Under the pieces are notes generated by a model. It ran no database searches. It saw only the letters and a program-made list of their open reading frames with translations, and had not been told where the DNA came from. A DNA stretch of 64,000 nucleotides, from contig JBAXYM010000003.1 in the NCBI GenBank assembly GCA_041670805.1, forward strand, positions 16,406 through 80,405, given 5' to 3'. A program made the translations under genes and the position numbers. Below, in pieces: positions 7,497 through 27,718 of this stretch (positions are counted from its first letter, which is position 1; each line of letters opens with the position of its first letter). The DNA comes from Patescibacteria group bacterium (lineage in GTDB: Bacteria; Patescibacteriota; Minisyncoccia; JAHIHE01; JAGLIN01).

Positions 7497-7622
7497 GCGG
7501 TGTAATCGGGTTAAGTACCCGTAACTTACAGTCAGTATAAGGCTTTTTAGGCGGTTTGGCTAGAAGGGGTTTTGAGGTACTCGGGTCGGGGTCTGAAATG
7601 GCAAAATGAGACAAATGAGACA
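7497..7622. repeat. ~126-bp direct repeat X (copy 1), left end of island A; second copy at 27593-27718 (~88% identity)
   Basis: gcggtgtaatcgggttaagtacccgtaacttacagtcagtataaggc...ggtcggggtctgaaatggcaaaatgagacaaatgagaca; a tRNA-Ser 3' fragment gcggaagaggagggatt sits at 7441-7457 just outside it. Confidence 0.7.
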
Positions 7623-8667: not shown

Positions 8668-9244
8668 AACAAAAACACAGACACAGGACAAAAGGAGCAG
8701 GAAATTTATTTTTATTCCTTTCTGTGTACTTTGCCAAGCCTTTCAGGCTCAAGGTATTGTCAGATATGATTTTTCTTCCGTAATGACTGACATTATAGAA
8801 GAAATAATGAAGCACGATCTGAATATAATTCAAATGCCTTGCCCCGAAAGCAAGCTGGGGGGATATAAAAACGGGTTGCAAAGACTTCCGCAAAGCATTA
8901 AAAAATATGATACTCCTGAATTCAGAGAAATTTGTATGAACTGCGCATCGGAGGTTATGGAGCAGATTAAAGCAATCCTAGAAAATGGATATGAAATAGC
9001 AGGTATTTTGGGAATAGAAAACTCTCCTTCATGTTCAATAAAATTGCAATATTCTAACAATGGTGCGTATCGTCAGCCGGGTATTTTTATTGAGGAATTA
9101 AAGAAACAACTTGAGCGAGATGGCATAGAGATTCCCTTACTAGGCATAAACCGAAGAGGAGTAGAAATAACATTAGTCAGGCTGAAACAGATGCTCGATA
9201 CAGATCAGGTATCTGTACAGCAAAAGAATTTGAATGAATTTTAA
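8660..9244 (+). CDS. DUF523/TudS-like [4Fe-4S] protein (divergent paralogue)
   Basis: 194 aa; FCVLCQAF and IQMPCPESKLGG motifs paralogous to the CPE motif of the next gene; start overlaps the PP-loop gene stop. Confidence 0.4.
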   Translation: MSKTKTQTQDKRSRKFIFIPFCVLCQAFQAQGIVRYDFSSVMTDIIEEIMKHDLNIIQMPCPESKLGGYKNGLQRLPQSIKKYDTPEFREICMNCASEVMEQIKAILENGYEIAGILGIENSPSCSIKLQYSNNGAYRQPGIFIEELKKQLERDGIEIPLLGINRRGVEITLVRLKQMLDTDQVSVQQKNLNEF

Positions 9245-9295
9245 TTGCTAACATTATTTTTTGTTAGCTTTTTTATTTTATAATTTCCAACCAAT

Positions 9296-9745
9296 ATGAA
9301 ACTTATCAGCGCCTGCCTGTGCGGAATAAACTGCGCATGGAATGGAAAATCAAAAATTTCCCCAAAGATACTTGAACTTGTAAAATCCGGAGAATTTATT
9401 CCTGTATGTCCGGAACAGCTTGGCGGGCTAAGCACTCCCAGAATTCCGCAAGAAATACAAGGCGGATCGGGGGAAGATGTTTTGGCGGGGAAGTGCAAAG
9501 TTATAAACAAAGAAGGAAAAGACGTAACCGCCCAATTCGTGAGAGGGGCGGAGGAAACATTGAAAATCGCAAAGCTCACGGGAGCGAAAAAATTTATTGC
9601 CAAATCAAAAAGCCCTTCCTGCGGCTGCGGCTTCACTTATGACGGAACTTTTTCCGGCACGCTGATTGAAGGTGACGGCGTTACCACGGCGCTCTTGAAG
9701 CGGAATGGAATAAAGGTGATAAGCAGCGAAAATATCGAGGGATAA
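9296..9745 (+). CDS. DUF523 family protein (2-thiouracil desulfidase TudS-like, Cys-ligated Fe-S cluster)
   Basis: 149 aa; LISACLCGINCAWNG ... FIPVCPEQLGGLSTPRIP ... KSPSCGCG conserved Cys pattern typical of DUF523. Confidence 0.55.
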   Translation: MKLISACLCGINCAWNGKSKISPKILELVKSGEFIPVCPEQLGGLSTPRIPQEIQGGSGEDVLAGKCKVINKEGKDVTAQFVRGAEETLKIAKLTGAKKFIAKSKSPSCGCGFTYDGTFSGTLIEGDGVTTALLKRNGIKVISSENIEG

Positions 9746-10086
9746 TCTTATCATAAAAATTAGATCCCATACGATAAAATTTTTATATATTTATTTCTGA
9801 TACTTATAAAGCAATGAATATCTAAATCTGAATTGTTTTTTCTTAACACAGTTTTTTTACATTGTGAATTACCCTGTGTGTCCTATGGACAACACAGGGA
9901 GTTCTTACTTCTTAAAAACAAATCATAAGACTCGCGGATGCAGTTTCTTAGCTAAGCAGGATAAAATGTTGAGGGCTGTCTTTTGGATATGGATATGTTA
10001 ACATTTTTATAATCTGTTTATAATTTATACAAAGAGTTTATTTGGTAATCATAGTAAAATATTCGCAAATATGCTAAATTAATGGC

Positions 10087-10722
10087 ATGGAACAACAAAT
10101 ATCTAGACGAACAGTCAAACAATGCTTGCCAGTTATTAATGCAGTGTATGCCTTTTTCGAAGTGCAAATAGTGGCATATGAGAACTTGGAAAAGAAAGAT
10201 GAGCTGTGCTTTTTTCATTTGGAAAAAGATTTCGGCATTCCCAAGCTATTAAGCGTAGGATATATCTTCGGCGAATGGCTAGAAGGATCAGATTTTATCT
10301 GCAATAAACTCTGCATCGTTAAAACAAATAAAAAGGCTAAGTGGCTTGATTTTATCAGATTGCTTGATAAAAAGATTAATGGGTACAAAGTTGATACTAA
10401 CATTATAGAAATATCTCTTGCATCGAATGGGATGATTTTCAGAAATATCAATGGAATGCGATATAGTTACGATTTTAAAAACGACGGCTTGAAGAAAAGA
10501 ATAATTGCTTTCCTCGCCGAGCAGAATGATTTCGTGCAAACAGCAGCTATCCAAAAATATGTTAAATCTACAAATGTAAAATCTTTTTCAGATGCTGTCG
10601 GGCAGATTAATTCCATTATGGAACAGAAATTGAAGCTACCTAAGGCGCAGAATTTAATCAAAAGCAAACGTGGCTCTGGTTATAGAATTAACCCGCTATA
10701 CAATATCATTTTGACCGATTAA
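10087..10722 (+). CDS. Hypothetical protein with a C-terminal OmpR/PhoB-type winged-helix-like motif
   Basis: 211 aa; C-terminal KSKRGSGYRINPLY resembles the wing of Trans_reg_C domains; no receiver domain. Confidence 0.3.
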   Translation: MEQQISRRTVKQCLPVINAVYAFFEVQIVAYENLEKKDELCFFHLEKDFGIPKLLSVGYIFGEWLEGSDFICNKLCIVKTNKKAKWLDFIRLLDKKINGYKVDTNIIEISLASNGMIFRNINGMRYSYDFKNDGLKKRIIAFLAEQNDFVQTAAIQKYVKSTNVKSFSDAVGQINSIMEQKLKLPKAQNLIKSKRGSGYRINPLYNIILTD

Positions 10723-10865
10723 CCAACACCTTTGCATCTCCAGTGGATAAGTATAAAAAATACCTTTATTTAAGAGGTATTTTTTGATGGCTGATGGAGA
10801 TGTGATGGATATAAATTATTTAAAATATATCCCATAATTTTGATATAAGCCTAAGTATAATTTAT

Positions 10866-12146
10866 ATGTCTACAAAACAAAGGTTAGAATGGCACACTGA
10901 AAAATGTTCGGTGGCAGAACTTATCCCCAATGACGAAAATCCCCGTGTAATGAGCCAGAAACAAATCGAGGATTTGAAAAGGAGTCTGCAAAAATTTAAT
11001 TTGGTTGAGATTCCTGTTATAGATACCGACAAAAAGGTGCTGGCAGGCCATCAAAGATTGATGGTGCTCAAATTGTTAGGACGAGAAAACGAGGTCATTG
11101 AAGTTAGAGTGCCGAATCGTAAATTGAGCCAGAGAGAATACGACCAATATTTACTTACGAGCAATCGTGTCCACGGTGATTGGGATTGGGAGAAGTTGGT
11201 ACAAAACTTCGATCTTGACCTCTTGGCTATTAGCGGGTTCGATGAAAATGATTTATCGCATCTCTTTGAAGACTTAACAGTAGAAGATGATGAATTTGAT
11301 GTTGAAGTGGAACTGGAAAAGATTAAAAAACCGAAGGCCAGGCTAGGAGATATTTATTTGCTTGGCAATCATAAATTAATTTGCGCAGATAGCACCGATC
11401 CTGAAACAGTCAAAAAACTATTTGGCAAAAACAAAGCGGATATGATTTACCAGGATCCGCCATACAACATCGGCCTGAATTACAACAAAGGGATTGGCGG
11501 CAAACAGCATTACGGCGGCACGGTTAATGATTCTAAAAGTGAGACCGAGTATAAAGAGTTTCTTGGAAAATCTTTGCAAAACGGACTTTTAGTCTGCAAG
11601 CCCGATGTCCATATCTTTACTTATTGCGACCAATCATATATATGGCTGTTTCAAATTCTTTATCAAGAATTGGGTATTCAAAATAGAAGAGTCTGCTTGT
11701 GGGTAAAGAATAGTTCCACGCCTACACCGCAAATAGCCTTTAATAAGCAATACGAACCTTGTGTTTACGGCACAATCGGCAGTCCTTTTCTTGCCGATAA
11801 AGTACTCAACTTATCAGAGATTATGAATAAAGAAATTGGCACAGGCAATCGCACACTGGAGGACATATATGATATGATCGATATTTGGCTTGTCAGAAAA
11901 CTGAGTGGCTCTGACTATCAACACCCAACCGAGAAGCCACCTATGCTTCATGAAAAAGCTTTGCGAAGGTGTTCCAAACCGGGCGATATTATCCTTGATT
12001 TATTTGCTGGTTCTGGGAGCCTGTTGATAGCTTGCGAACAATTAAAACGGTCTGCGTACTTGGTCGAACGCGAACCAGTATTTGTTGATTTAATAATTCA
12101 AAGATATGAGAAACTCACAGGAAACAAATCCAGAAAAATCTCTTAA
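10866..12146 (+). CDS. ParB-like nuclease domain fused to a beta-class N6/N4 DNA methyltransferase (phage/ICE-type orphan MTase)
   Basis: 426 aa; N-terminal ParB-N fold (ELIPNDENPRV...LAGHQRL); MTase motif IV IYQDPPYNIG precedes motif I DLFAGSGSLLIA; ~50% identical paralogue at 29378-30646. Confidence 0.75.
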   Translation: MSTKQRLEWHTEKCSVAELIPNDENPRVMSQKQIEDLKRSLQKFNLVEIPVIDTDKKVLAGHQRLMVLKLLGRENEVIEVRVPNRKLSQREYDQYLLTSNRVHGDWDWEKLVQNFDLDLLAISGFDENDLSHLFEDLTVEDDEFDVEVELEKIKKPKARLGDIYLLGNHKLICADSTDPETVKKLFGKNKADMIYQDPPYNIGLNYNKGIGGKQHYGGTVNDSKSETEYKEFLGKSLQNGLLVCKPDVHIFTYCDQSYIWLFQILYQELGIQNRRVCLWVKNSSTPTPQIAFNKQYEPCVYGTIGSPFLADKVLNLSEIMNKEIGTGNRTLEDIYDMIDIWLVRKLSGSDYQHPTEKPPMLHEKALRRCSKPGDIILDLFAGSGSLLIACEQLKRSAYLVEREPVFVDLIIQRYEKLTGNKSRKIS

Positions 12147-12891
12147 ACACGGCCAGATTTGGCAACTAGGCGATCATAAGTTGCTCTGCGGCAGTTCGTT
12201 GGATTCCGAGCTGGTGCAAAAGCTCCTTGCGGGTTCAAAAATAAATTCCATTATCACTGATCCGCCTTATGGCATTAGCTTTGTCGAGAGCAAAAAAAAT
12301 TTTTCTAAGGTAAAAGTGAACAAGAGAATTCTCAACGATAATATTTCCTCAGAGAAAGAATACTGCGAATTTACAAAGCAGTGGCTAAAAATTCCCTTGC
12401 TTTACCTAGCCAAGAAAAATAGCATTTATATCTTCAACTGTGATAAAATGCTCTTTGCCTTAAAAAAGGCGCTTGACGAACTTGATGTTTATTTCTCGCA
12501 ATTAATTATTTGGGTAAAGAATCATGCCGTAATCGGGCGTAAAGACTATCTGCCTCAGCATGAATTGATTTTATTCGGTTGGTTTGGCGCTCATGCTTTT
12601 AAGCGAAGTAAGGACAAATCTGTTTTGTTTTATCCAAAACCGAATAAGAGCAGTTTGCATCCTACCACCAAACCCATGGAATTAATCAGTCATTTAATAT
12701 TAAATTCTACCGATATCGGCGATACTATCTATGATTGCTTTGGTGGTTCGGGCACTTGCCTAATATCAGCCGAACTAACTAAAAGGCGCTGTCTAATGGT
12801 CGAGTATGACTTAGAATATTGTGCAATTATTATGAAGCGCTGGGCACATATAACTAAACAAGAAATTAAATTAATTTATGAAGAAGAATGA
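12106..12891 (+). CDS. DNA methyltransferase (beta-class N6A/N4C), second MTase of the module
   Basis: 261 aa; ITDPPYGISF then DCFGGSGTCLISAE; start overlaps the upstream gene (translational coupling). Confidence 0.7.
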   Translation: MRNSQETNPEKSLKHGQIWQLGDHKLLCGSSLDSELVQKLLAGSKINSIITDPPYGISFVESKKNFSKVKVNKRILNDNISSEKEYCEFTKQWLKIPLLYLAKKNSIYIFNCDKMLFALKKALDELDVYFSQLIIWVKNHAVIGRKDYLPQHELILFGWFGAHAFKRSKDKSVLFYPKPNKSSLHPTTKPMELISHLILNSTDIGDTIYDCFGGSGTCLISAELTKRRCLMVEYDLEYCAIIMKRWAHITKQEIKLIYEEE

Positions 12892-14802: not shown

Positions 14803-17430
14803 TTACAAAACTATTTCAGATATAGAAGCTGATTTACTTTTATCTAGAGAATTTGCTTTTATAAACAATTCTATGGCCTCTTTCTCGCTTTTGTCTGACC
14901 AAGCTTTATCTCCTAATTCAGCCAAACATACACTGAATTTATCTGGATTGTAGGCGATCTTAAAATCATTATACTGGAAATATTTTTCCTTTTTATAGTC
15001 TAGTCCTTCTTTCACAAAATGCTTCAAGAAGAAGCCAGTATCTCTCGGATTTTTTCTAAATGTTTTTATGAGGTAATCAGTTACTTCCTCATTACGATCT
15101 CTATCTTCGTCGCTCCAATCAACCGCCCATTGAAAGAGAATAATGGCGAACTCGTTATATTTTTTATACTGTGTAAAAACATTCCTATTTTCCTTAATAA
15201 AATATTTTTTTAATCGTTTTTTGATGATATTTTTTAGTTCTTCATGATTAATATTCTGATGAATTCTATATAAACTGCTGCTTCGACCCTCACTGCAAGA
15301 AAGAACTACCGTAGAAACAAAATCCAAACGTTCTGTTCGTTGAATAATTTCCTTTAAAATCCCTTGAATCTGGTTTTCTTCTATTTTCTTATTGTCTTCC
15401 AATAACCGAAAAATTAATCCGTATGCTTGATTATATTCGTTGTCCCACAAATCTCCACTTTGCATAAATCTGTTACAATTTTGATAAATAACTCTAATCA
15501 ATGTTAGGGCAATCTCTTTGTTAACCTCTTTTGCATACAACTTAAGAAGGTGCAAAAGATCAATTAGTTTTAATTCTTTTTGGTATTTTTCAAAAAACGA
15601 TATTTTGATGTCATTTTCTAAATTATCAGAAAGCTTCCATGCTTTGAGTATGTCATCAAATTCAGAATCAGATATTACGTTTTCACGCACTCCTAATGTA
15701 AAATATTTATAAAAACAATCCGGGTGAGCTATTCTCCTTTTAATTCTGTACTCTTCGACCAAACCTCCATAGCTGTTATTATCAAATGCATTTTTTATCT
15801 CTGGAAAAATATCCTCCAGCAAAGATATAATTATTTTATTATTTTGTGTAATTATTTCTATATGACTCTTTATAGTTTCTCTTTTTTCTCTATCATCATA
15901 TGGCAGGTAAGTATATGCTCTAAGCTCCAAAGACCAAGGAGAGACATAAAACCACCAGTTTTTTCTTATATCATTATATATATCTGGAAAGAAAGTATGA
16001 AAGATTTCTAAAATGAAAAAATCGTATAAGTGTATTTCACGTTCTATAAACGGCAACCTAAAGAAGATACTATTAAGATAACGTTTAGCGGCTCTATATG
16101 TGGGGAAAAATGGTTTTAAATTAGATTGATAAGTTTTTGTAAACTCTTCATCAAACTCCTTTCTTCTAATGCTATCGATCTTGATACCATCAAAAAATTT
16201 ATCAATTTCTGATATGCGTCCGGAATCTGGATATGAAAATAGTAGAAAGTCATCAATCTTTCTATGATCAGTCGATGGCAAATATATCGGCAATTGAATG
16301 ATTTTTTCAACATAATTCACAGGATCGCCTATCTCCTTGTTATTTTGTAAAATTGAAGATACTATCGAAGGGTCAAAACAAAGTAAAAAGACCATATTAT
16401 TCATACGGCTTGTTAGTTTTACAAGCCGGAATACAGCTAGAATCTCATTAGCCTGAAGACGATCAACATCGTCTATAATAACTAAAACTCTCTTGTCTAG
16501 TGAAGCTACAAATTTTTCAATTTTTTCCTTGAGCTTCAACGGTCGATCTTCGGTATTATTATGTAACTGTAAAGATAAATTTGCAAAACCCTTGATTAAT
16601 ACCTCTGGATAGAAATTAAGATAATTCTTCACTTTGTTAGGCACTAAATACTTTTCTTCTAACAACTTCTCTAATCCATGATAAAAGTTCACCGTTAAAG
16701 CATCTTTTTCTCCGAAGAACCAAGGATCAAATTCATAAACTAGCAGTTGTTGGTCATTTTCCAGCTCTCTCTTAAGTAAGTTTAAGACAGATGTTTTACC
16801 TTCCCCCCAACATCCATATAGACCCATGACGAATGATTCTTTAAAAGATAATTTATAAATGTTATCTTTTAATGCATCGGCGAATCTCTTTCTTCCAATT
16901 AGGTCATTGCCATTATCGTTTATCGGCTCATCTGTTAACAGCTTTGTTTGTTCGCCAAGACTATCTATCAATTGATTTTCTATTTTTTTCTCTTTGATTG
17001 TAGACAATAGAGCCTTCAGATATGTTGCTAAAGCAAAAAATATTATAGGGAATAAGACAACTCGAAAGCAAGGTAAATCTAGAAAATGTTTTGATAATAA
17101 CCACCATATGCCTAAAAAACTGACTAAAGACAAACTATCAACAGCAGAAAACTGTGGTTGTTTTATGAAATAAGATTCTCGGTATTTGCGCCAAATTGAA
17201 ATGCCTTTTTTCCAAACGGCTCCAAATATTACTAACTCAAATAATATAATATATTGTGGTGCAGGCAAAAATGGAATAATACTATCAAAAAAATCTTTTA
17301 TATTTGATTGAAAAATTCCAGCAATCCAAAAAAGAAACATACCTGCTGCCGATGAAAGCAGTAAGTCATTAAAATTTATTTGAATATAATTTAAGAGTGC
17401 TACAATTTCTTTGTTTAGGAAATATTTCAT
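14803..17430 (-). CDS. KAP-family P-loop NTPase with four N-terminal transmembrane helices
   Basis: 875 aa; P-loop GLYGCWGEGKTSVLNLL; Walker B-like VLVIIDDVDRL; N-terminal TM segments; adjacent to the type III R-M pair. Confidence 0.55.
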   Translation of the reverse strand: MKYFLNKEIVALLNYIQINFNDLLLSSAAGMFLFWIAGIFQSNIKDFFDSIIPFLPAPQYIILFELVIFGAVWKKGISIWRKYRESYFIKQPQFSAVDSLSLVSFLGIWWLLSKHFLDLPCFRVVLFPIIFFALATYLKALLSTIKEKKIENQLIDSLGEQTKLLTDEPINDNGNDLIGRKRFADALKDNIYKLSFKESFVMGLYGCWGEGKTSVLNLLKRELENDQQLLVYEFDPWFFGEKDALTVNFYHGLEKLLEEKYLVPNKVKNYLNFYPEVLIKGFANLSLQLHNNTEDRPLKLKEKIEKFVASLDKRVLVIIDDVDRLQANEILAVFRLVKLTSRMNNMVFLLCFDPSIVSSILQNNKEIGDPVNYVEKIIQLPIYLPSTDHRKIDDFLLFSYPDSGRISEIDKFFDGIKIDSIRRKEFDEEFTKTYQSNLKPFFPTYRAAKRYLNSIFFRLPFIEREIHLYDFFILEIFHTFFPDIYNDIRKNWWFYVSPWSLELRAYTYLPYDDREKRETIKSHIEIITQNNKIIISLLEDIFPEIKNAFDNNSYGGLVEEYRIKRRIAHPDCFYKYFTLGVRENVISDSEFDDILKAWKLSDNLENDIKISFFEKYQKELKLIDLLHLLKLYAKEVNKEIALTLIRVIYQNCNRFMQSGDLWDNEYNQAYGLIFRLLEDNKKIEENQIQGILKEIIQRTERLDFVSTVVLSCSEGRSSSLYRIHQNINHEELKNIIKKRLKKYFIKENRNVFTQYKKYNEFAIILFQWAVDWSDEDRDRNEEVTDYLIKTFRKNPRDTGFFLKHFVKEGLDYKKEKYFQYNDFKIAYNPDKFSVCLAELGDKAWSDKSEKEAIELFIKANSLDKSKSASISEIVL

Positions 17431-17434
17431 TTTA

Positions 17435-19840
17435 TTAGAATATAATACTATTCCATCCCTTCATCGTTGGAGTATATGAATAATTTTTATCCTGATTAAT
17501 TTTCCACCCGTTGGCATCCTTAACTGCAATTCCACCACAAAAATTCTTTTTTCCCGCTAACCATTCCTGCAAAGCTTCGGCTTTATATTTTGTATCATTT
17601 GATTCGGCAGTAAAGCCTGCTTTAGTATCAATTATCCAAATCTTGTTTTTGGTCTTTATAATCCAGTCAGGATAAAATAGTTTTTCTTTATTCTCGTCAG
17701 GGTTATAATAAGAGATTGAGAAATATTCACTACCAGAATCTCCATTTTTATACCACCATTCAATATCGTTGCTTTCTTCTAAGAATTTAATAAAGAATTT
17801 TTCATTTTCTACTACTTCCTTGCTAATATAGAACGGCTCCATAGCAGAATATTTAACTTTCATATCCTGATAACTATCAGTAAAAAATAAAGAAGGTCTA
17901 GGTATCTCTATAATCTCAATTCTCTTGGAACGAACAGCTTTCTTATTTACTTCCTGGTCGCGGATAGGCCTATAAGTCTCCAATGCCTCTCCGATAATAG
18001 GACGTAAAACTCCAGATTCCTTCAGAATGTCATTTAGTATTGCCTTGTAAGCATCATTACGATTATCACCAAGCATTGGAATTAGCCATACATTTAAAGC
18101 GGTTTTTAATTTTCCCCAAGAACGTTCTGGTGCAAATTTCTTATTCTCATCCGTCTGCTTGCTAATAATATTAAAGCAGACAAGGTTGTATAATCTCTCA
18201 ATATCGTTTTGAGACATTTCTTGATCATGATTTCCTCCCTCGGCTAATAATTCTTTAACGAAATTATCGTAATCATCAATTTCCACACCGACAATAATTC
18301 CGTTAGTTACGCTTGGTTTTATGTCAAAATCCTTGGCAATCAGCTTTTTTTTAGCATCTTTATCTCCGTCTTTAATCCCAAAATATTTATTAGCTATTTT
18401 TTTAAAAGTAGTCTGGAATGAATCGCCGAGATCGTTATAGTCCGAACGGCCCATAAATACTGATTCGATCTGGATTGGCTCAATATTCTTTTTGCGATAA
18501 CTGCCAAAAATTGCCGGTTTATTTTCAGATTTATTCTTGTCATATTCACTAATTACCTCATTGCGTTTATAATTAGTATACAAATAACCTAAATTTAGTT
18601 CTGGTTTGCCATAATGGGTGCCAGTTGGCATGCGAAGAATCCTACCTACAGTTTGAATGGCAAAGGTAGGATTTTTTATTTCCCTAAACATAACCAGCAC
18701 ACCAGCACGAGGACAATCCCAGCCAGTGGCTACGGCTTGTTTGAAGAGTAAAAATTCAATCGGAGAATCGTTCTTTTCAATGTCATCAAGATTAACTTTA
18801 TCTTCAGACAGCCAAATAGCGATGTTATTTTCTAAAACACCTTTCTTTTTTAAAAATTCTACAACTATATCTTGTTTGCTAGTACTGCTTGTTTCCGCCG
18901 AAGCTTTGTCATCATTCGGAAGTTGAATAAGTACCAGGGGATTAATATCTAAACCTAATTCCTTGTAGTATTTTACCAGCTCAATTCGTCTATTATATGC
19001 AAGCTCAAGAAGAATCTCATCTTGATCCATATGTTTGAATTGTTTTTGATTCAAATCTTCTTCGGTCTGAAAAATAATCTTTTCTTTTATTAGTCCTTCT
19101 CGCACAACATCTTCACGTTTCACTCGAACAAACCCAGCTTGATTGTCTTCTATGTCGCTAAGAGTCGGTTCGTATTTTGGAGTTGCAGAAGCACGGATGA
19201 TGATTTTAGGTTTAATTAAACCATCAATAAGTTCAAGAGCTTTGTCGGTGTCAGCTCCAAGATGTTCTTCATCAATAATCACTATGATTTCCCTTTTCTC
19301 TTCATGAGTAGCCTCAATCATTCCATCAAAAGAAACATCCTGTTCGTTTTCACGCCTAATTTTTAAAACTTCTTTCGATTGTCCTTTTAATTTTTCCCAA
19401 TTTATGAAAAAAACACTGTTGTGAGTAAGTACCTTGTGATTAAGATCATTTATATCCAAAAGCTCCAATTCCGAAGCGCCGCCATAATACTCAAAGAGCT
19501 TATTCTTGCTCTGCTCAACAAGAGTAGGGCCTTTGGACATCCATAAAAAAGCAGCGTCGTTACCAACAAAACGAGGATCAGAAACAATATCACGTAAAAA
19601 TTGTGCTAACATCACAGTTTTTCCTGACCCTGTTGGAGATTTGAAAACTAGAGGCAGTTGATTTTCAGAAGTTTTCCATAAATCTAAAAACTGATCTTTA
19701 AGTTTAGCTATGGCAGTTTCCTGAAATGGTTTTAGTGCAAACATATTATAGGCGATTAATTTCTTTATAAACTTCAAGAATTGGTTCTGGAATATCTTCA
19801 ACATGAATATTGTCAGAGCTATATTCGTTGGTATACTCAT
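17435..19840 (-). CDS. res: Type III restriction enzyme Res subunit (SF2 helicase-nuclease)
   Basis: 801 aa ORF; motif I FKSPTGSGKTVMLAQF, motif II IIDEEHL; a likelier start is the internal Met at 19744 (MFALKPFQETAI), which removes the 95-nt overlap with mod. Confidence 0.65.
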   Translation of the reverse strand: MSIPTNIALTIFMLKIFQNQFLKFIKKLIAYNMFALKPFQETAIAKLKDQFLDLWKTSENQLPLVFKSPTGSGKTVMLAQFLRDIVSDPRFVGNDAAFLWMSKGPTLVEQSKNKLFEYYGGASELELLDINDLNHKVLTHNSVFFINWEKLKGQSKEVLKIRRENEQDVSFDGMIEATHEEKREIIVIIDEEHLGADTDKALELIDGLIKPKIIIRASATPKYEPTLSDIEDNQAGFVRVKREDVVREGLIKEKIIFQTEEDLNQKQFKHMDQDEILLELAYNRRIELVKYYKELGLDINPLVLIQLPNDDKASAETSSTSKQDIVVEFLKKKGVLENNIAIWLSEDKVNLDDIEKNDSPIEFLLFKQAVATGWDCPRAGVLVMFREIKNPTFAIQTVGRILRMPTGTHYGKPELNLGYLYTNYKRNEVISEYDKNKSENKPAIFGSYRKKNIEPIQIESVFMGRSDYNDLGDSFQTTFKKIANKYFGIKDGDKDAKKKLIAKDFDIKPSVTNGIIVGVEIDDYDNFVKELLAEGGNHDQEMSQNDIERLYNLVCFNIISKQTDENKKFAPERSWGKLKTALNVWLIPMLGDNRNDAYKAILNDILKESGVLRPIIGEALETYRPIRDQEVNKKAVRSKRIEIIEIPRPSLFFTDSYQDMKVKYSAMEPFYISKEVVENEKFFIKFLEESNDIEWWYKNGDSGSEYFSISYYNPDENKEKLFYPDWIIKTKNKIWIIDTKAGFTAESNDTKYKAEALQEWLAGKKNFCGGIAVKDANGWKINQDKNYSYTPTMKGWNSIIF

Positions 19841-21470
19841 TCTTGCCCCAACTGAAAATATATAGGGCAGCAGGTTGCTTTCTTTTTTCTAATATACCAA
19901 CTAGGTTATGTAATTTCTCTTTGTCCTCCTTAAAGTAAATAGCTGTAATTTTTCCCAATCCTTCAAATATTTGCCACCAATTATTTTTCTCAACTTCATT
20001 TAATGTGCTTTCGCGCAAAGCAATCATTTCACCAGCCTGATAAGTTAACTTAATTTTTGCATTATCTGGTGTACCATGTAATTTTTCGATATCGACCAAA
20101 TCAGTTTTATAATAGCGAAGATTGCCACCTAAGCCTTCTACTTGCTCTCCTTTTTTATTTTTATACCCCTTCATTACACGCTTAATTCGTTCATATGTTA
20201 CTTCTTCACAGATGTTATTTTCGTTATTTGTGCATAGAATAAATTTGCGGTTCCCGCCATCTTGTTTATTTAATTCAAGAACAGCATGGCCGGTAGTACC
20301 TGAACCCGCAAAAAAATCAAGTACTTTAATGTTTTTTGTGATTGATCCCATTTCAATGATTCTCTTTATCATTTCTACTGGCTTTGGATATCCGAATATC
20401 TTTTTTTCAAGAATTTCCTTTAGCAGCAATGTTCCTTTTTCTGTATTTACATCTTTATCGTCCCAAATCGAGCGCACCATCTTTTCTTTCTTTCTATATT
20501 TTTCAACTATCTGATATCCGCCATCTTGCATCTTTTTCGCAGCTATTTCAATATTAAGATTTTCTAAGGATTTAGACTTACCCCATCTCCAGACTGTTTT
20601 TATGCCCTGTGACTCTTTAGGAAAAAGCTCAAACCAGCCAGGCTTTTTATCTAGGGATATTTCAAAAAAACCGTTGTCTAATTGTTTATTAGGATTGATA
20701 TAAAAGGGGTAATAAAGATTCGGTCTATTTTTATCATTAAAAGCAATGTTGCGATTCCTTAATTCTCTGGTTTCAAATCCGCCTAATGCATCCTGAAACG
20801 GAAATTCCTTATTCTCATCAGATATGCTGAATATTTCAGATTGATCAGTTGATGAATACACCAAAACATAGTCGTGCATTCTAGCAACGCCACCATAGTC
20901 ACGTCCTCGAGGGTTACCTTTAACGGTTATAGATGCTCGATAATTATTTTCTCCAAAAATAATATCACAGAGTGATTTTAAATTTGCATACTCATTGTCA
21001 TCTATGCTAATAAAAATTAGGCCTGTTTTCTTAAGTAAGTTTCTTGCTAAGGTTAGCCTATTATACATAAAAGAAACCCACTTGCTGTGACGAAAGTTAT
21101 CATCCAAATCCACAAATTTATCATTATAGGCAAAATCTTGATTGCCGGTGTTATAGGGCGGATCAATATATATGACATCAAAACTATTTTTATGGGTATA
21201 ATTCAGAACTGTTAAGGCATGATAATTATCCCCCTCAATCAAAATATTTTCATCCTTCGATTTGTCTGTGATAATCACAGGATCGATTTCCTTCCTTTTT
21301 TCTTTTAGTTGTAGGATAGGTATATTGCGTTTACAATCCATAACAATTTCTTCTGGTTTATCTTCCCAAACTAAACCATAAGTTTTTTGCTTCTTAATTT
21401 TCTTAAGCTCAGTTTCTAGCTCGGAAATTCTCTGCAATAGGGTTTTTTCTTTATTTTGATCCAACATCAT
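19746..21470 (-). CDS. mod: Type III-like DNA methyltransferase (Mod), beta-class N6-adenine MTase
   Basis: 574 aa; motif IV VIYIDPPYNTGN followed by motif I VLDFFAGSGTTGHAV; immediately upstream of res on the same strand. Confidence 0.7.
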   Translation of the reverse strand: MMLDQNKEKTLLQRISELETELKKIKKQKTYGLVWEDKPEEIVMDCKRNIPILQLKEKRKEIDPVIITDKSKDENILIEGDNYHALTVLNYTHKNSFDVIYIDPPYNTGNQDFAYNDKFVDLDDNFRHSKWVSFMYNRLTLARNLLKKTGLIFISIDDNEYANLKSLCDIIFGENNYRASITVKGNPRGRDYGGVARMHDYVLVYSSTDQSEIFSISDENKEFPFQDALGGFETRELRNRNIAFNDKNRPNLYYPFYINPNKQLDNGFFEISLDKKPGWFELFPKESQGIKTVWRWGKSKSLENLNIEIAAKKMQDGGYQIVEKYRKKEKMVRSIWDDKDVNTEKGTLLLKEILEKKIFGYPKPVEMIKRIIEMGSITKNIKVLDFFAGSGTTGHAVLELNKQDGGNRKFILCTNNENNICEEVTYERIKRVMKGYKNKKGEQVEGLGGNLRYYKTDLVDIEKLHGTPDNAKIKLTYQAGEMIALRESTLNEVEKNNWWQIFEGLGKITAIYFKEDKEKLHNLVGILEKRKQPAALYIFSWGKNEYTNEYSSDNIHVEDIPEPILEVYKEINRL

Positions 21471-21691
21471 ATATTTTAATTTTCATCATTGTTAATTTTT
21501 CAATAATAGTTTTTACAACCTATTAGAAATCGGTATTAAACTATCGTTACTTTACCTCTTTTTACGCTAAAAGTAAAGAAAAATTGGCAATTCCATATCG
21601 TTTAGAAGACTTAAGTTATCAACAGCTAGTAGTCTGGACGCCCCGCGTGCTATGTGTCATTCATTGTAGTGTAATAAATAAGGGAAAATGT

Positions 21692-23014
21692 ATGGAAATT
21701 AAGGAATTTCAGACTCCAAATCAAATAATCACTGCAAAAGAAGACATAAAATATTGTCTATATGCCCGTAAATCAACCGAATCGGAAGAAAGGCAGGTCC
21801 TTTCGATAGATAGTCAAGTCAAAGAAATGTTGGAGCTAGCAAATCGAGAGAACTTGAATGTTATCGAGATAAGGAGAGAATCCCACAGTGCCAAAGAAAC
21901 TGGCCAGCGAAAAATATTCAACGAACTTGTAGCAGATATTAGAACGGGTAAATTCAATGCTATCCTTACTTGGGCACCGGACAGAATATCCAGAAATGCC
22001 GGAGATCTGGGAGCGATAGTAGATCTGATGGATCAAGGAGTATTGAAAGAAATCAGAACTTATGGACAGAAATTCGGAAATAATCCTAATGAAAAATTTT
22101 TACTGATGATATTAGGATCCCAAGCTAAACTTGAGAATGATAATCGAGGAGTTAATGTCCGGCGTGGATTACGGACCAGAGCAGAGATGGGACTATGGGT
22201 AGGAGTGGCACCGCTGGGGTACTTAAACCAAAAAAGAATGGACAAGAAGTGCCAAGTTATCCAAGATCCATTAAGAGCTCCTGTGATTAAGCAGATATTT
22301 GAAAAAGTAGCTTATGAGAAATATAGCGGAAGACAAGTATATAACTGGCTAAAACATGACCTTAATTTCTACACTAGAGGTAACAAACCATTAACCTTAA
22401 GCGGAGTATATAGAGTTTTGGATAACCATTTCTATTATGGCATGTTTGAACGACCAGTCGGAAGTGGTAATTGGTACCACGGAAAACACAAAACCTTAAT
22501 TACACAAGAACTATTTGAAAAAGCCCAGGCACAATTAAAACGAGATAAGATTGTTAGGGAAAACAAAGAGTTTGCATTTACTAAGCTAATCACTTGCGGA
22601 TTATGTGGATCGGGAATATCAGCAGAAGAAAAATATAAAGAACTCAAAGACGGAACAACGGCTCATTACATTTATTATGGATGCAGTCGGGCCAGAGACA
22701 GGGATTGCAAGAATAAGTATATCCGAGAAGAGGAACTTATCGCGGAACTTTTAAAAATACTTGATAAGATAGATATAAATGAACTAGGAATGAGAACTAG
22801 ACTAGAGATGGAAGTTGATAGGTTTAACAAATTCCAAAACATGGTATTCGGAGAAAAATCTAGTATTAAAAAACAAAAGCCCGCAGTTGATTTGCGAGTT
22901 TATGCAAAATATGTGCTTAAAGAAGGAAGTGCTACGGAGAAGAGAGAATTACTGGCTAATTTGAGAAGCAGGATAGTGTTGAGAGAGAAGAGGTTAACGC
23001 TAATTAAAGAGTAA
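21692..23014 (+). CDS. Large serine recombinase (resolvase/invertase-type catalytic domain plus recombinase and zinc-ribbon domains)
   Basis: Catalytic CLYARKSTESEE (Ser nucleophile), C-terminal CGLCGS...YYGCSRAR zinc ribbon; ORF track begins at 21584 but the paralogue 42332-43651 and an RBS-like aagggaaaa support the Met at 21692. Confidence 0.8.
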   Translation: MEIKEFQTPNQIITAKEDIKYCLYARKSTESEERQVLSIDSQVKEMLELANRENLNVIEIRRESHSAKETGQRKIFNELVADIRTGKFNAILTWAPDRISRNAGDLGAIVDLMDQGVLKEIRTYGQKFGNNPNEKFLLMILGSQAKLENDNRGVNVRRGLRTRAEMGLWVGVAPLGYLNQKRMDKKCQVIQDPLRAPVIKQIFEKVAYEKYSGRQVYNWLKHDLNFYTRGNKPLTLSGVYRVLDNHFYYGMFERPVGSGNWYHGKHKTLITQELFEKAQAQLKRDKIVRENKEFAFTKLITCGLCGSGISAEEKYKELKDGTTAHYIYYGCSRARDRDCKNKYIREEELIAELLKILDKIDINELGMRTRLEMEVDRFNKFQNMVFGEKSSIKKQKPAVDLRVYAKYVLKEGSATEKRELLANLRSRIVLREKRLTLIKE

Positions 23015-24551
23015 AGTTTTCAGGAAATATTTTTTTAATATAATTATCATCAAATAATTCTTTGATTACCACTGAGTGTTCTTTACAATAATTATTAGTA
23101 TAGGAATAAAAGGGCCAAGTGCTTTTTTCTTTATCCAATATCTTGGTTTCAATAAAGGATTTAAATGAAGTCTGCTGCATAGCTTGAATGGCAATTTCAA
23201 ATTCTTCAATACACATTATCGAATATGGATATTTTTCCAAGAGTTCTAGTGACAGCTTATTTTCTCTAAACAGATTAATAACCTTTTCTTTTACTAAGTT
23301 ATTAACACCGATATCATTATGGCCCGACATAAACCAGTTCTCTAAAGTCAATATCAAAGGATATATTGATTGGTTATTATATTTGCAACTGGTATATAAG
23401 TTGTTTAAATAATCATCTAATGTTTTATAAAGTTGAAAAATACCTTCCGCTAAAATGCTATAATCTTTATCAGCTTTTTCATTAATATCTATCAATATTT
23501 GAGAGTCTATCGACAATCTTTTAGCTTTGCATTCGATGAATAATAGTTCTTTATTGTCGCTTACGATAAAATCAACTGTCTTTTTTGGAATTCCAGGTCT
23601 GGGATAATATTCTTCATCTCGATAAATTCTGAGATTTCGCAAATTAGTCTTTTCCAAAACTTCATTTATATAATTCTCGAAAGCTTTCCCATAAATATTA
23701 TCAAAGTCCTTTTCTTTTACGAGATCATAATATACACCTCCTGTTAACCTCCAAAATAAAAAGGTCGGTATAGGGCAAATCAATGCTTCCTTTCCCATAT
23801 TAGTGCATCGGATAATTGGGTAATATCTGAGCGGATTAAATTGATATAGAAAATTCTCATCTATTTTATTGGAATTGGCTATTATCTTTTTAAAATTTGA
23901 AATGTCTTCGGCAAAATATTTGAGAAATTTATCAAGCTTTTCTTTATTAATTTCTTCTACCTCAATTTGTGGTGGATAATATATTATAAGATTGTTTATA
24001 TAAACTCTCAATAATAACATGCCTATTGTATATATATCTTTGATGGATAGACCATATTTATTTTGAACGATAAAATCAATATTTTCATCGCTATAGATCG
24101 AAAAATATCTAAACATCATGGAAGACTGCGGTTTTTGTATTTGCCAGGGTGATTCTAGAAAAAATATCCTGCGCAACTCACTAAGTATATTGGTTTGATT
24201 TAAATATAGCTGAGATATCTTCCCTTCCAGTGTCTTTAATTTATTAATTGAATCAGCTAAATAATCCCATTTTTTTAAAGATGATAGGAATTGATTTGGT
24301 TCGATATCTTGGGCATTTAAAATTATTTCTCTGGCCAATGTAGCAAGATTCCATTCAGCCATCCATCTTCTTTTTTCAATATCATTTGCTTGCAAATACT
24401 CCCTTATAACTTGGACGTCTTGTGGCAATGATTGGCTGAACTGAAGATATTGCATGTATGCCCTAATAACACCAAGAGATTCCCATAAAGGGACTTTTCT
24501 GAGTTTGTTCCTGAGTGGTTTATAATAGCTAAACAATGAATCTTCTAGCAT
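23004..24551 (-). CDS. Hypothetical protein with a possible PD-(D/E)xK nuclease core
   Basis: 515 aa; KTVDFIVSDNKELLFIECKAKR fits a D...ExK motif; co-oriented with and upstream of the helicase gene. Confidence 0.3.
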   Translation of the reverse strand: MLEDSLFSYYKPLRNKLRKVPLWESLGVIRAYMQYLQFSQSLPQDVQVIREYLQANDIEKRRWMAEWNLATLAREIILNAQDIEPNQFLSSLKKWDYLADSINKLKTLEGKISQLYLNQTNILSELRRIFFLESPWQIQKPQSSMMFRYFSIYSDENIDFIVQNKYGLSIKDIYTIGMLLLRVYINNLIIYYPPQIEVEEINKEKLDKFLKYFAEDISNFKKIIANSNKIDENFLYQFNPLRYYPIIRCTNMGKEALICPIPTFLFWRLTGGVYYDLVKEKDFDNIYGKAFENYINEVLEKTNLRNLRIYRDEEYYPRPGIPKKTVDFIVSDNKELLFIECKAKRLSIDSQILIDINEKADKDYSILAEGIFQLYKTLDDYLNNLYTSCKYNNQSIYPLILTLENWFMSGHNDIGVNNLVKEKVINLFRENKLSLELLEKYPYSIMCIEEFEIAIQAMQQTSFKSFIETKILDKEKSTWPFYSYTNNYCKEHSVVIKELFDDNYIKKIFPENFTL

Positions 24552-24621
24552 TTTTATATAAGATTAAACTCTAAATATCTTTATTATAATTATAAGGGCA
24601 GTAACTATTGAAAAATATGAC

Positions 24622-27330
24622 TTAGAGATTAAACTTTGATGACAACAACGCTGCATCTCTTCCATTGTTTCTTTTTTCTAATCCACTCAATACTTTATTT
24701 TCTGTTTCTGCCGTCCAATATATTTTTAATTTCTCCTTTGCACGTGTTATAGCCGTATAAAAAATATTATGCGAAATCATTTCCTCAATCTCGTCAGTAA
24801 TAACAATTTTAACCGAATTATATTCCAATCCTTGAGCCTTATGGATTGAAACGGCATAAGCAATTTGAAACGGAACTATAGTGTCTGAAGCAGAATCATC
24901 ATCTTCATCGGTACTTCTGTGTTTGTTAACAAAAAAACGAATTACTGATTTGCTCTTATCGGAATTTGGCATCAATTGAAAATCATATCTCTCTGCATCA
25001 AGCTGATTTATTACCTTATCATCAAGCTCAATATCGAATTGAATTTTATCATTAAAAATTTCTATACCAACTATTTTGCCTTTTAAGTTGTTATAAATCA
25101 AAGGCGCGAATCTTTCTGATTCATTAAACAAAATAGGGTCGTTAACTTTATAAGTGTGAACGCCCCATTGCATAGGAGCATTTTCATTATTCCCTTGCAA
25201 AAATCTGTTGATATTATTTATTCCGTAAAGTCCGTCATAGTTTAAACATAAAATTATTTCATCCTCTTCGGAGTGTTCAAAAATTGATTCGTCTAAGACA
25301 ATTGAATACTTATTTTTCGTAATGTGCTCCAAAATATCTTCATCTATATTTCTAACCCTATTCCACAATGTAAGCAAATGGGGATTATTACTACGATAAG
25401 GTTTAATCAATTCAAATATAGAAGTTTTTGGAACAAAAGACTTCGCTATATTAAACCAGTTTCCAAAAAGTATTGATTCTATCTGAAAATCATCGCCTAC
25501 CAAGACTAATAATTTAAAGGATGCTTTCTCTAAAACTTTACGCATATCAGAATTGCTAACCGTACTACACTCATCAATAATTAATAAATCAAATTCAGTA
25601 TCAGAATTTTTCTCAGATAAAAATTTAGCTATTGTTTTAAAGGTGCCATTAGCAGCATTCACTCTTCTTCTTAAATTATCAACTGCCGGATTAGTATTCG
25701 CCAAATAGAGCTTGCTTTCATTATTAAAGAAGTTCGATATATAGTTTATCATGGTAGATTTCCCTGTTCCGGCAGAGCCATATATAAGAGCCACCATTGA
25801 ATTCTCAAACATCTTTCTCAAAGCTTCTTTCTTTTCGGGACAATCAATGTGATAAGTTAGCGACTGCAACCATGCATTAACAGAGTTTGAGTAGTTTTTT
25901 ACACCACTCAAGGATAGATCTTTAAGTTTTTGAATAATTTGGAGAGTATCTTTTTCGTAGCCTCTTATATAGATATAATCTTTATAACTTTCTAATCTGC
26001 GATCTGTATGTTTATAGTACAGGGCCTTATTATACAATTGTATGAGACTATCAATATTTTCAAAGCCGGTTATATCTTTTTTGGAAATGTAAAGCTGTCC
26101 TTTTATTTCGGTATTGTTTCTTATAAATCTTGCGAATATCTCATGTGTTCGATTTGTTGAATCTATACAATCAAATAAATCTGAGCTTTTTGGATTATGA
26201 TCTATTAATGAAGTATTAAGCGGCATTTGATCAAATGGGATGCATCCGTATTTAAGATTTAAATTTGATAATTTTTCACATTCCTCATTCTCATATTGTT
26301 GTTTAATAATTTTATTGTTTAGCTTATAAAGCAAATATCTAATAACATTACTTCCCTGGCTATTGTTTTTTATTAGTTCACGACTTTTATCTAAAGCATC
26401 CAAGAAATGAGTCGTCTTCGCTTTTTGAGTGATCTGGCTTTTAATACTCTGATAATAATTATCTGCAAAATCAATAGTTTCAACGAGATTCAGATTATAT
26501 GCTGTTAAAAATTTCATTAATTCACGATATTCAATATTTCCACTTTGTATCTTGGAGTGACTGCCAAATATATCAGCAAAATGATCAAGTTCACACGGAC
26601 GAATTGATACTTTCCAACCATCAATAATTTGAATAGGCATTTCTTTACCCAAAATTTGTATATTATCGTTGCTTATTAATAGCTTTACAGCATAATTTTG
26701 AGATATATCAAGTTTTGTAAACGCAATAATCCTATCGAATTTGCTTGCTTTGTCGTTAGCTGTTGTAAAAGTCACCTCGTAATAGACTTCACAACTGATA
26801 AAAAACGGTTTTATTTTCTGAATATAATATCGATCGTCATAGGTGTTTTTTATCCTCGTTGATTCTGGCTGGTTAATTTTTTCAACTATTTTCTCATAAT
26901 AGTCTTGAAGGGCAGGATCGGTCTTTATGGGAAATTTACTTATATTATCAAGAACATCAAGATCGTAAGTGTTTTTTAAAAACGTTTTTATTCTTAGCAA
27001 GTATTCATAATATTTTAGCATTAATCTTACTGAATTATCTTCATCAGGGGTATAATGAGAAGCAGTAATTTGCAAGAGTTTATGAAGTTTTCTTAAAAAA
27101 GTTAAATCTCCTCTAGTTTTTATATAAGCATTTGCTTTTACAATATTATCATAAGTATTTTCAATATCCTGCCCGTTGCTATATATTTTCAGTGAAATAT
27201 GCTCAACGAAATTTCTAAGTTGTGATAAGATATTCTGCGATAACAAGTCTCTGTCACAGGGATCAAACTTTTCAATATTATTACAAATAACTTTATCAAT
27301 TCCTAGAATTTCATCATCAATTTTATTCAT
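24622..27330 (-). CDS. SF1 (RecD/Pif1/UvrD_C-like) helicase with an unrecognised ~500-aa N-terminal region
   Basis: 902 aa; Walker A ALIYGSAGTGKST, Walker B LLIIDECSTV, C-terminal AVSIHKAQGLEYNSVKIV ... FYTAITRAKEKL. Confidence 0.6.
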   Translation of the reverse strand: MNKIDDEILGIDKVICNNIEKFDPCDRDLLSQNILSQLRNFVEHISLKIYSNGQDIENTYDNIVKANAYIKTRGDLTFLRKLHKLLQITASHYTPDEDNSVRLMLKYYEYLLRIKTFLKNTYDLDVLDNISKFPIKTDPALQDYYEKIVEKINQPESTRIKNTYDDRYYIQKIKPFFISCEVYYEVTFTTANDKASKFDRIIAFTKLDISQNYAVKLLISNDNIQILGKEMPIQIIDGWKVSIRPCELDHFADIFGSHSKIQSGNIEYRELMKFLTAYNLNLVETIDFADNYYQSIKSQITQKAKTTHFLDALDKSRELIKNNSQGSNVIRYLLYKLNNKIIKQQYENEECEKLSNLNLKYGCIPFDQMPLNTSLIDHNPKSSDLFDCIDSTNRTHEIFARFIRNNTEIKGQLYISKKDITGFENIDSLIQLYNKALYYKHTDRRLESYKDYIYIRGYEKDTLQIIQKLKDLSLSGVKNYSNSVNAWLQSLTYHIDCPEKKEALRKMFENSMVALIYGSAGTGKSTMINYISNFFNNESKLYLANTNPAVDNLRRRVNAANGTFKTIAKFLSEKNSDTEFDLLIIDECSTVSNSDMRKVLEKASFKLLVLVGDDFQIESILFGNWFNIAKSFVPKTSIFELIKPYRSNNPHLLTLWNRVRNIDEDILEHITKNKYSIVLDESIFEHSEEDEIILCLNYDGLYGINNINRFLQGNNENAPMQWGVHTYKVNDPILFNESERFAPLIYNNLKGKIVGIEIFNDKIQFDIELDDKVINQLDAERYDFQLMPNSDKSKSVIRFFVNKHRSTDEDDDSASDTIVPFQIAYAVSIHKAQGLEYNSVKIVITDEIEEMISHNIFYTAITRAKEKLKIYWTAETENKVLSGLEKRNNGRDAALLSSKFNL

Positions 27331-27543
27331 ATTTTTACCTTCATTTATATGTTGAAAAGATAGACACCTGATCTGCTTTCATATTTATAATATGCCTTAA
27401 AAAGACCGAAAAGTAAAGAATAAAATGAACTTACTATCAGTCAAACGGTAGTGGTTTTTGCTTATAACAAAAACCAGATCCAATTGGATCTGGTTTCACG
27501 CAGGGGGTATGTTTGGTTTGTCCTTGTAGTTTAACATAGAAAA

Positions 27544-27718
27544 CACCCAACAAAATCTGGGTATTCGGGTCTATCCGATACTAAATTGTCTTGGCGGTGT
27601 AAGTGGGTTAAGTACCCATAGCTTACAATCAGTGTAAGGCTTTTCAGGCAGTTTGACTAGAAGCGGTTTTGAGGTACTTGGGTCGGGGTCTAAAATGCAG
27701 AATGAGACAAATGAGACA
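27544..27718. repeat. Junction of islands A and B: ~54-bp repeat Y (duplicate of the tRNA-Ser 3' end plus downstream flank and dyad hairpin) directly followed by repeat X copy 2
   Basis: 27553-27596 ctgggtattcgggtctatccgatactaaattgtcttggcgg matches 47869-47912; 27593-27718 matches 7497-7622. Confidence 0.7.

Follow-up and report, generated by a model that had tools for sequence, protein, structure and literature searches.

In a 64,000-nucleotide stretch of a Patescibacteria genome (contig JBAXYM010000003.1, positions 16,406 to 80,405; hereafter, the window), we analyzed a three-gene cluster in which a type III-like restriction–modification (R-M) pair, mod and res, is followed by a gene for a KAP-family P-loop NTPase with predicted N-terminal transmembrane (TM) helices, here called TM-KAP. 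The principal finding is that this protein belongs to a clade of PifA/KAP defence NTPases specialised as the terminal rider of R-M operons—an association that is statistically strong, type-independent and position-specific. No description of KAP NTPases linked to R-M operons was found in the literature searched. The cluster as a whole is variable cargo of a ~20-kb serine-recombinase integrative element. A preliminary description of the same DNA had proposed that KAP forms a composite or backup (abortive-type) system with the type III enzyme. That interpretation turned out to be partly supported, being broadly right and too narrow: the linkage to R-M stands, whereas type III specificity falls away, and a dedicated composite gives way to a modular add-on, favoured because the partners are of types I, II, IIG/ISP-like and III.

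Homology searches divided the relatives of the window KAP into a long class of ~850-900 aa, the members of which align from the N-terminal TM region onwards, and a short class of ~720 aa, which begins at about residue 160 of the window protein, is PifA-like and lacks TM helices. An exhaustive profile search (with the family alignment, A1) returned 7411 KAP relatives at E ≤1e-30, with at least 150 representatives at 50% identity scoring >438 bits; the 150 best matches listed take in the full-length TM-KAP family, as compared with >7800 homologues for res. Genomic contexts were collected from genome and metagenome scans and from exact-protein look-ups, and were counted only if at least 1 kb of upstream sequence was present. 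In at least 16 of the ~40 distinct long-class contexts, KAP is directly preceded by R-M genes on its own strand—a lower bound, since several upstream genes were checked with R-M seeds only—and the same is true of 8 of the 14 contexts from the clade at least 42% identical to the window KAP. In the short, TM-less class, which served as the control, a Pfam scan of the non-redundant upstream genes found an R-M gene immediately upstream in 1/85 cases (an MmeI-type enzyme), and phmmer searches of the co-directional upstream chain with R-M seeds found none (0/83). The difference in R-M linkage between the long and short classes is significant (Fisher's exact p = 1.4e-8), and the TM-less controls reject chance adjacency as the sole explanation. 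The KAP–R-M linkage on which the preliminary description had made its proposal depend is, in other words, conserved across homologous islands. Wherever R-M genes are linked, KAP is co-directional and 3'-terminal without exception, and the gene immediately upstream overlaps it by up to 17 nt or lies up to 99 nt away.

The partners span several R-M types. Besides the window and the near-identical locus L001, a type III system is found in L168, followed there by a PDC-S18/DUF5655 gene. Type I partners occur in L002-L005, L166 and L175, with hsdR overlapping the KAP start by 8-14 nt, and in L104, L106, L120 and L008, where they consist of HsdR and an HsdM-S fusion. Type II partners comprise an N6_N4 methyltransferase with a HinfI-family restriction endonuclease (L169-L171 and L086) and an EcoRI-like methyltransferase with an HNH restriction endonuclease (L167; PADLOC REase_II, 9e-84), and the partner in L184, L095, L122, L090 and L107 is a IIG/ISP-like or truncated methyltransferase. 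Neither Pfam nor PADLOC gave a match for two further conserved partners, a 671-aa protein in L095 and a 322-aa one in L174. Two further observations concern the type I loci. In L166, an AriA-like (PARIS) ABC ATPase is encoded between hsdM and hsdR of the KAP-ended operon (5412-6875; PADLOC AriA, 9e-37). Moreover, a conserved protein of 505-511 aa without a Pfam or PADLOC match is encoded ~100 nt downstream of KAP in a distant type I-linked subclade (Table 1), and may be an extra component. As for collections of mobile replicons, no KAP homologues were detected in the phage genome collection, matches in the plasmid collection were partial (≤66% coverage) and TM-less, and an IMG/VR scan with the KAP profile yielded only distant short-class matches.

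From sequence comparison among these loci, KAP reads as an exchangeable 3' add-on to R-M operons. The KAPs of L166, placed after a type I HsdR, and L167, placed after a type II HNH endonuclease, are 84% identical in protein sequence, and their DNA homology (78%) extends from 10006 to 12622 in L166 (KAP at 10001-12655) and from 7121 to 9733 in L167 (KAP at 7122-9749), with nothing in common upstream. On the L166 side this homology starts 5 nt inside the KAP open reading frame (ORF), on the L167 side 1 nt ahead of the ATG, and it ends 16-33 nt short of the stop codon. The nearest relatives of the window KAP are those of L184 (58% identity, with a IIG/ISP-like partner) and L169 (56%, with a type II partner), while the other type III-linked KAP, in L168, is 46% identical. 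Because the Mod proteins of the window and L168 are only 30% identical and their Res proteins give no BLAST match, the two type III links are independent. A partnership specific to type III was rejected on these grounds—partners extend over types I, II, IIG and III, the two type III cases being unrelated to each other—and a modular add-on is preferred over a dedicated composite enzyme, since partners of every type occur and related KAPs follow unrelated R-M genes.

The converse arrangement was also found. Two IMG/VR contigs listed as viral, L186 and L187, carry elements of the family found in the window, with serine recombinases 53-67% identical and homologous methyltransferase genes; L186 additionally shares the terL and terS genes with the window element. 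Both carry orthologous mod-res genes (50-67% identity) in the equivalent slot without KAP, which implies that mod-res does not need KAP. What follows res was looked at in these two loci: in L186, the gene at 8322-8774, which encodes 150 aa with about three hydrophobic helices, overlaps the res stop by 4 nt in the place of KAP—another membrane-protein rider.

In the window itself, three long ORFs occupy positions 14803-21470, all on the minus strand and in the order mod, res, KAP (Table 1). The genes stand head to tail, with intergenic gaps of 1 nt (mod/res) and 4 nt (res/KAP): a single base separates the end of the mod stop codon (19746) from the res ATG (19744), and the KAP ATG (17430) follows the end of the res stop (17435) in a junction that reads TTC TAA TAAA ATG. 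A tail-to-tail placement of KAP next to mod-res, as given in the preliminary description, is ruled out by the common strand and was a misreading of orientation. Its choice of the Met at 19744 as the res start was right: this codon lies 1 nt after the mod stop, an independent gene call likewise gives 769 aa, and most listed homologues measure 756-780 aa. No terminator-like site was seen at the mod/res or the res/KAP junction. The three genes look intact and their arrangement is operon-like; the gene spacing suggests that they would be expressed as a single transcript.

Sequence from a second source bears on the integrity of KAP. Locus L001 (ENA ERZ27247361, another sample) is identical to the window over 21 kb, with 0 other mismatches, bar one 1-nt deletion that shortens an A6 homopolymer inside the KAP gene to A5 (L001 position 11639) and splits the protein into 566 + 319 aa. 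Other TM-KAP genes are disrupted by an insertion sequence (DDE_3; L119/L120) or appear as split ORFs (L006, L013 and L014). This repeated disruption suggests a costly gene or assembly artefacts, and an assembly error is possible for the homopolymer.

The protein encoded by the last gene is, as the preliminary description had it, a KAP-family P-loop NTPase of 875 aa with four predicted N-terminal TM helices. The Pfam KAP_NTPase match (PF07693; 140.3 bits against a cutoff of 20, E 1e-40) covers residues 180-454 with no insertion. Kyte-Doolittle hydropathy places hydrophobic segments at residues 22-40, 51-69, 94-112 and 124-142, positions that are kept in nearly all 30 full-length homologues of family A1. 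An AlphaFold2 (AF2) model built on that alignment (mean predicted local distance difference test score, pLDDT, 82.8) shows long helices at 20-39, 58-86, 96-113 and 120-150, followed by a disordered linker at 149-162. The TM assignment thus draws on hydropathy and on the AF2 model. The uninterrupted Pfam match and the hydropathy profile show no TM helices inserted into the P-loop domain, all four being N-terminal to the NTPase; the KAP family has been described with four TM helices outside the P-loop domain (PMC13001434). Within the NTPase core, Walker A reads GCWGEGKTS (G206-S214; window 16789-16815) and Walker B reads IIDDVDR, with G206, W208, G209, G211, K212, S214, D320, D323 and R324 invariant among the 30 homologues.

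The C-terminal half is almost wholly helical in the AF2 model according to DSSP, with pLDDT mostly at 85-95; no Pfam family matches its 420 residues, which show no recognisable nuclease or other catalytic motif. Likewise, searches with Pfam, NCBIfam and PADLOC gave no nuclease or HEPN-like domain anywhere in KAP. The PADLOC PifA model matches the protein at 5e-59 in 2 stretches, the best of which aligns residues 290-775 with profile positions 159-641 of 720, and the NCBIfam QatA model gives a weak match (49.6 bits vs a cutoff of 600). A PDB sequence search with the KAP profile returned no match. Fold comparison of the AF2 model retrieved RdrA, NLR and Avs-type ATPases, with the ring-forming RADAR RdrA as the nearest solved fold; the modelled core is STAND/AAA+-like.

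By sequence, mod and res read as an ordinary type III-like R-M system, in agreement with the preliminary description. The Mod translation shows DPPY and FAGSGTT motifs, and its structure-database matches are Mbo45V (7dsu, 4e-65), a type III Mod (6k0w, 1e-42) and EcoP15I Mod (4zcf, 1e-30). The Res translation has the helicase motifs GSGKT, DEEH and SAT, and its C-terminus bears a PD...DTK motif ('YPDWII...IIDTK') in which P692, D693, T707 and K708 are invariant in the Res alignment (A3, which includes the L168 Res, a protein that matches Pfam RE_endonuc). On the basis of this PD-(D/E)xK-like motif, the nuclease is putative: no Pfam or PDB sequence match was obtained for the nuclease domain of the window Res, and phmmer of the whole protein against PDB chains gave no match. 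The res family has >7800 homologues; the matches listed are 66-86% identical, and some are named 'type III restriction enzyme'.

The function that we favour for TM-KAP, at about even confidence and by analogy with known defence proteins, is that of a modular, membrane-acting second anti-phage layer that would be co-expressed with restriction. The mod-res pair would form the first line, cleaving unmethylated invader DNA, and KAP would be an autonomous second-line module, added time and again at the 3' end of R-M operons whatever their type—a placement that would let it be co-transcribed and co-transferred with R-M. The helical C-terminal domain might sense an infection cue, after which the STAND/RdrA-like NTPase would oligomerise in an ATP-dependent manner. 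Oligomerisation would gather the TM helices and compromise membrane or ion homeostasis, as reported for PifA and by analogy with Tmn, and this membrane action would stop phages that had escaped restriction. The trigger, the effector action and an abortive outcome are proposed by analogy, the backup or abortive role leaning on the homology with PifA and on the predicted membrane-anchored, STAND-like architecture.

Several points weigh against this proposal. About 24 of the 40 long-class contexts (~60%) have no R-M gene directly upstream, these KAPs standing solo beside housekeeping genes or near other defence-type or mobile-element genes; the R-M link is frequent, not obligatory, and also fits mere co-selection. 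The R-M seeds behind the phmmer control (0/83) were drawn from the long-class loci, and the control leans mainly on the Pfam scan, limited to the first gene upstream. Short metagenomic fragments make up many of the contigs, and the contexts were de-duplicated by eye. Within KAP, mean identity is 64% for the NTPase and 51% for the C-terminal half, and the TM region is the least conserved in sequence at 29%; no pore-forming or enzymatic effector motif was identified in the protein. Scans for consensus promoters and terminators gave counts no higher than those of shuffled controls, and are uninformative either way. Finally, the label of abortive infection (Abi) may be wrong for TM-KAP, as EF_KAP, a KAP protein from Enterococcus, has been reported to be non-abortive (PMC13552941).

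A guardian role of the PrrC/PARIS-like kind, which we regard as unlikely, would have KAP stay inactive while R-M works and fire on anti-restriction or on a by-product of restriction or host-DNA breakdown, such as DNA ends or methylated nucleotides. The conserved position inside R-M operons and the translational-coupling-like junctions would suit such a role. PrrC and PARIS make R-M-embedded or R-M-guarding systems an established concept (PMC12707154), one described system responds to methylome-derived m6-dAMP (PMC12871103), and the linked type I locus L166 also embeds an AriA-like ATPase. The partners are, however, biochemically unrelated (HsdR, Res, HinfI-like, HNH type II and IIG/ISP-like), and ~60% of the family has no adjacent R-M. 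Near-identical KAPs, moreover, sit behind different partners, which makes specific protein masking as in PrrC-EcoprrI improbable. Because the partners are unrelated, a guardian would need a cue common to all R-M types. The type-agnostic version, in which TM-KAP would monitor such a cue (failed restriction, DNA ends, or methylated nucleotides from degraded methylated host DNA) and bring about membrane collapse, seems a shade less probable again; if true, it would explain why one ORF is grafted 3' of type I, II, IIG and III operons.

It is rather improbable that KAP and R-M have no functional link at all, their adjacency reflecting the clustering of defence genes in mobile-element cargo hot-spots where R-M is the commonest neighbour. 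The window is indeed a dense defence island of two tandem elements with swappable cargo, several TM-KAPs adjoin other defence-type genes (Schlafen/AlbA_2; a YhcG nuclease with nSTAND1; an SMC-like ATPase), and the sister elements carry mod-res without KAP. Yet TM-less KAPs, which also reside on plasmids and beside defence-type genes, have R-M upstream in 1/85 cases as against at least 16/40; linked TM-KAPs invariably follow the R-M genes in the same direction and in 3'-terminal position, at overlaps or gaps of <100 nt; and KAP came to occupy the equivalent position independently behind four or more types of R-M. We consider it very unlikely that KAP is an integral R-M accessory without an independent effector, tethering or regulating the restriction complex at the membrane (e.g., at the DNA entry site) or controlling restriction alleviation: tight operon coupling would fit, but the same R-M families are overwhelmingly without KAP, the diversity of partners speaks against a shared docking surface, and many TM-KAPs are solo. 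Least credible is an addiction module in which a toxic KAP and post-segregational killing by R-M stabilise the mobile element, for although the genes are carried on an integrative element and the repeated inactivation of KAP (L001, L119/L120, L006, L013, L014) suggests a cost, no antitoxin-like partner is conserved, a costly defence gene would equally be expected to be inactivated, and homology points to phage-exclusion proteins.

The membrane-acting second layer that we favour is carried by mobile DNA. Two tandem ~20-kb low-GC integrative elements, A and B, span window 7497-47932 beside tRNA-Ser(cga) at 47907-47996, and are delimited by the junction repeats listed in Table 1. A PNPase encoded in the flanking sequence is 100% identical to a protein from a metagenome-assembled genome of a Patescibacteria group bacterium. 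Their common backbone comprises a ParB-methyltransferase, a methyltransferase, a terS-like gene and a large serine recombinase—that of element A being 82% identical in nucleotide sequence to the second copy at 42189-43637—and their defence cargo differs. The mod-res-KAP genes occupy the element A slot between terL and the recombinase.

Table 1. Positions of the features discussed in the text, in window coordinates unless a locus is named.
Feature	Position	Strand	Basis or remark
mod, type III-like beta-class amino-methyltransferase, 574 aa, first gene of the operon	19746..21470	-	Pfam N6_N4_Mtase 5e-35; PADLOC MTase_III 8e-86
res, type III-like restriction subunit, SF2 helicase-like ATPase, 769 aa	17435..19744 (ORF open back to 19840)	-	Pfam ResIII 2e-14; PADLOC REase_III 9e-19
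TM-KAP, predicted membrane-anchored KAP-family P-loop NTPase, PifA-like, 875 aa, last gene of the operon	14803..17430	-	Pfam KAP_NTPase
KAP residues 1-150, four predicted TM helices, putative membrane effector/anchor	16981..17430	-	Hydropathy and AF2 model
KAP residues 175-455, P-loop NTPase core	16066..16908	-	Pfam match 180-454; invariant A1 columns
KAP residues 456-875, all-alpha C-terminal domain, putative sensor/oligomerisation arm	14806..16065	-	DSSP of AF2 model
A6 homopolymer inside the KAP gene	15791..15796	-	A5 in L001
Large serine recombinase of element A, divergent from mod, outside the defence operon	21584..23014	+	Pfam Resolvase, Recombinase, Zn_ribbon_recom
Left junction repeat, element A (~7.5-27.6 kb)	7497..7622		89% identical to 27594-27718
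Junction of elements A and B	27531..27718		Left part repeats the tRNA-Ser 3' end region 47847-47912; direct repeats D3 and D4; blastn 88%
Last junction repeat	47847-47932		Overlaps tRNA-Ser
Conserved 505-511-aa protein downstream of KAP	L104 5316-6836; L106 12533-14068; L120 13643-15163; L008 5468-6985		

The remaining cargo slots of both elements hold other genes. The second slot of element A (23004-27330, minus strand) encodes a GapS1-like protein of 515 aa (NCBIfam 1e-24, below the cutoff), which adjoins a full-length PDC-S53 RecD-like helicase (PADLOC, 1356 bits). In element B, the slot equivalent to that of mod-res-KAP (31907-42122, minus strand) contains an 802-aa AAA_13 ATPase (34766-37174), a helicase of 1396 aa that carries an MTES_1575/DUF559 nuclease (37376-41566) and resembles Hhe/ProA anti-phage proteins, and ORFs of 299, 367, 142 and 181 aa without an assigned family. 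The second slot of element B (43662-47791) encodes a 496-aa protein with a SEC-C motif and a 201-aa LexA/S24-like repressor, and also holds a pair of genes, one for a DUF6791-ThiF (E1-like) protein and one for a DUF6527 protein. Two adjacent paralogues in the element A backbone (8660-9745) resemble 2-thiouracil desulfurase, one with a weak and one with a strong match (3e-44). Outside the elements, a region of higher GC upstream of them (1871-6385) carries a VirB4/TraG-like ATPase and genes resembling those for pilins of type IV secretion systems. Just left of the element junction, a 122-nt unit is repeated in tandem (7115-7236 and 7243-7364, 80% identity), and a 30-nt sequence occurs twice without mismatch in direct orientation (7415-7444 and 7471-7500). 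On the right-hand side, the gene at 48158-51799 (minus strand) encodes a coiled-coil-like protein of 1213 aa that is rich in E and K, has a single hydrophobic segment close to its C-terminal third and matches no Pfam family; the extreme AT skew of this region (-0.49) is due to this gene.

KAP NTPases have only recently been shown to act against phages, and the TM-KAP clade offers a handle on the wiring between defence layers, through its N-terminal module of four predicted TM helices, its recurrence as the terminal gene of every R-M type and the exchange of its ORF as a discrete cassette. Co-regulated independent layers and PrrC-like guarding are the candidate wirings. In addition, the case documents mobile, cargo-swapping defence elements in Patescibacteria, the genomes of which are tiny, so that each retained gene is likely to be under strong selection.

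Compared with known systems, the R-M part of the operon comes closest to type III enzymes of the EcoP15I type: mod precedes res, the window Mod is homologous to EcoP15I Mod (1e-30), and the window Res combines SF2 helicase motifs with a C-terminal PD-(D/E)xK-like motif. It differs in the shortness of Res (769 aa, with no phmmer match in the PDB) and in the third co-directional gene after res. Likeness of KAP to RdrA of RADAR lies in the fold only, sequence identity being 11-14%; RdrA is soluble and lacks TM helices, and no gene for an RdrB adenosine deaminase is found among the neighbours of the window KAP. QatABCD is set apart both by the low QatA score (49.6 vs 600) and by gene context, as the neighbours here are mod, res, terL and the recombinase. 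The analogy is purely mechanistic for a P-loop NTPase of another family, anchored in the membrane and with two TM helices inserted within its P-loop domain, which detects a phage protein and halts infection via membrane and ion physiology (PMC13001434).

PrrC with EcoprrI (and RloC) shares with the window system the principle of an NTPase-containing accessory gene wired into an R-M operon, a linkage seen here for the window KAP and at least 15 other R-M contexts; PrrC is thought to act on restriction failure. PrrC is a cytoplasmic ABC-type ATPase fused to an anticodon nuclease, encoded between hsd genes and masked by a specific type Ic enzyme, whereas the window KAP has predicted TM helices and no nuclease domain, and the KAPs of its clade are always 3'-terminal in R-M operons and accompany types I, II, IIG and III. 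The preliminary description called KAP NTPases functionally uncharacterised, which no longer holds, given PifA, QatA and the KAP defence proteins of Enterococcus, in which KAP proteins with TM helices act as stand-alone phage defence (PMC13552941, PLoS Biol 2026). EF_KAP and similar proteins combine TM helices, a KAP NTPase and a large uncharacterised C-terminal region, and adjoin serine recombinases on mobile DNA; their defence activity requires Walker B and the C-terminal region. In contrast to the four N-terminal helices of the window KAP, EF_KAP was modelled with one N-terminal TM helix and one inside the NTPase domain; it was tested as a single gene, with no R-M operon linkage reported, and is linked to small serine recombinases where the window recombinase is large. 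The comparison of EF_KAP with the window clade is one of architecture and gene context.

By homology, the window KAP resembles PifA, which mediates exclusion of phage T7 by the F plasmid. PifA is shorter and without TM helices (PMC13001434), whereas the window KAP adds an N-terminal extension of 150 residues with four predicted TM helices; PifA is encoded in a pifC-pifA context, while the window KAP is preceded by mod and res; and TM-less PifA-like relatives show no comparable R-M linkage (1/85). PifA responds to T7 gp1.2 and gp10 as triggers and causes membrane depolarisation, permeability lesions and nucleotide leakage (as summarised in PMC13001434). Both are KAP-family P-loop NTPases with homology extending beyond the NTPase core (PADLOC 5e-59), and a tblastn comparison found the window KAP 24% identical over residues 140-486 (4e-19) to an F-type plasmid gene named 'phage T7 exclusion protein' that lies beside pifC. 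PifA acts at the membrane, and both proteins are encoded on mobile elements.

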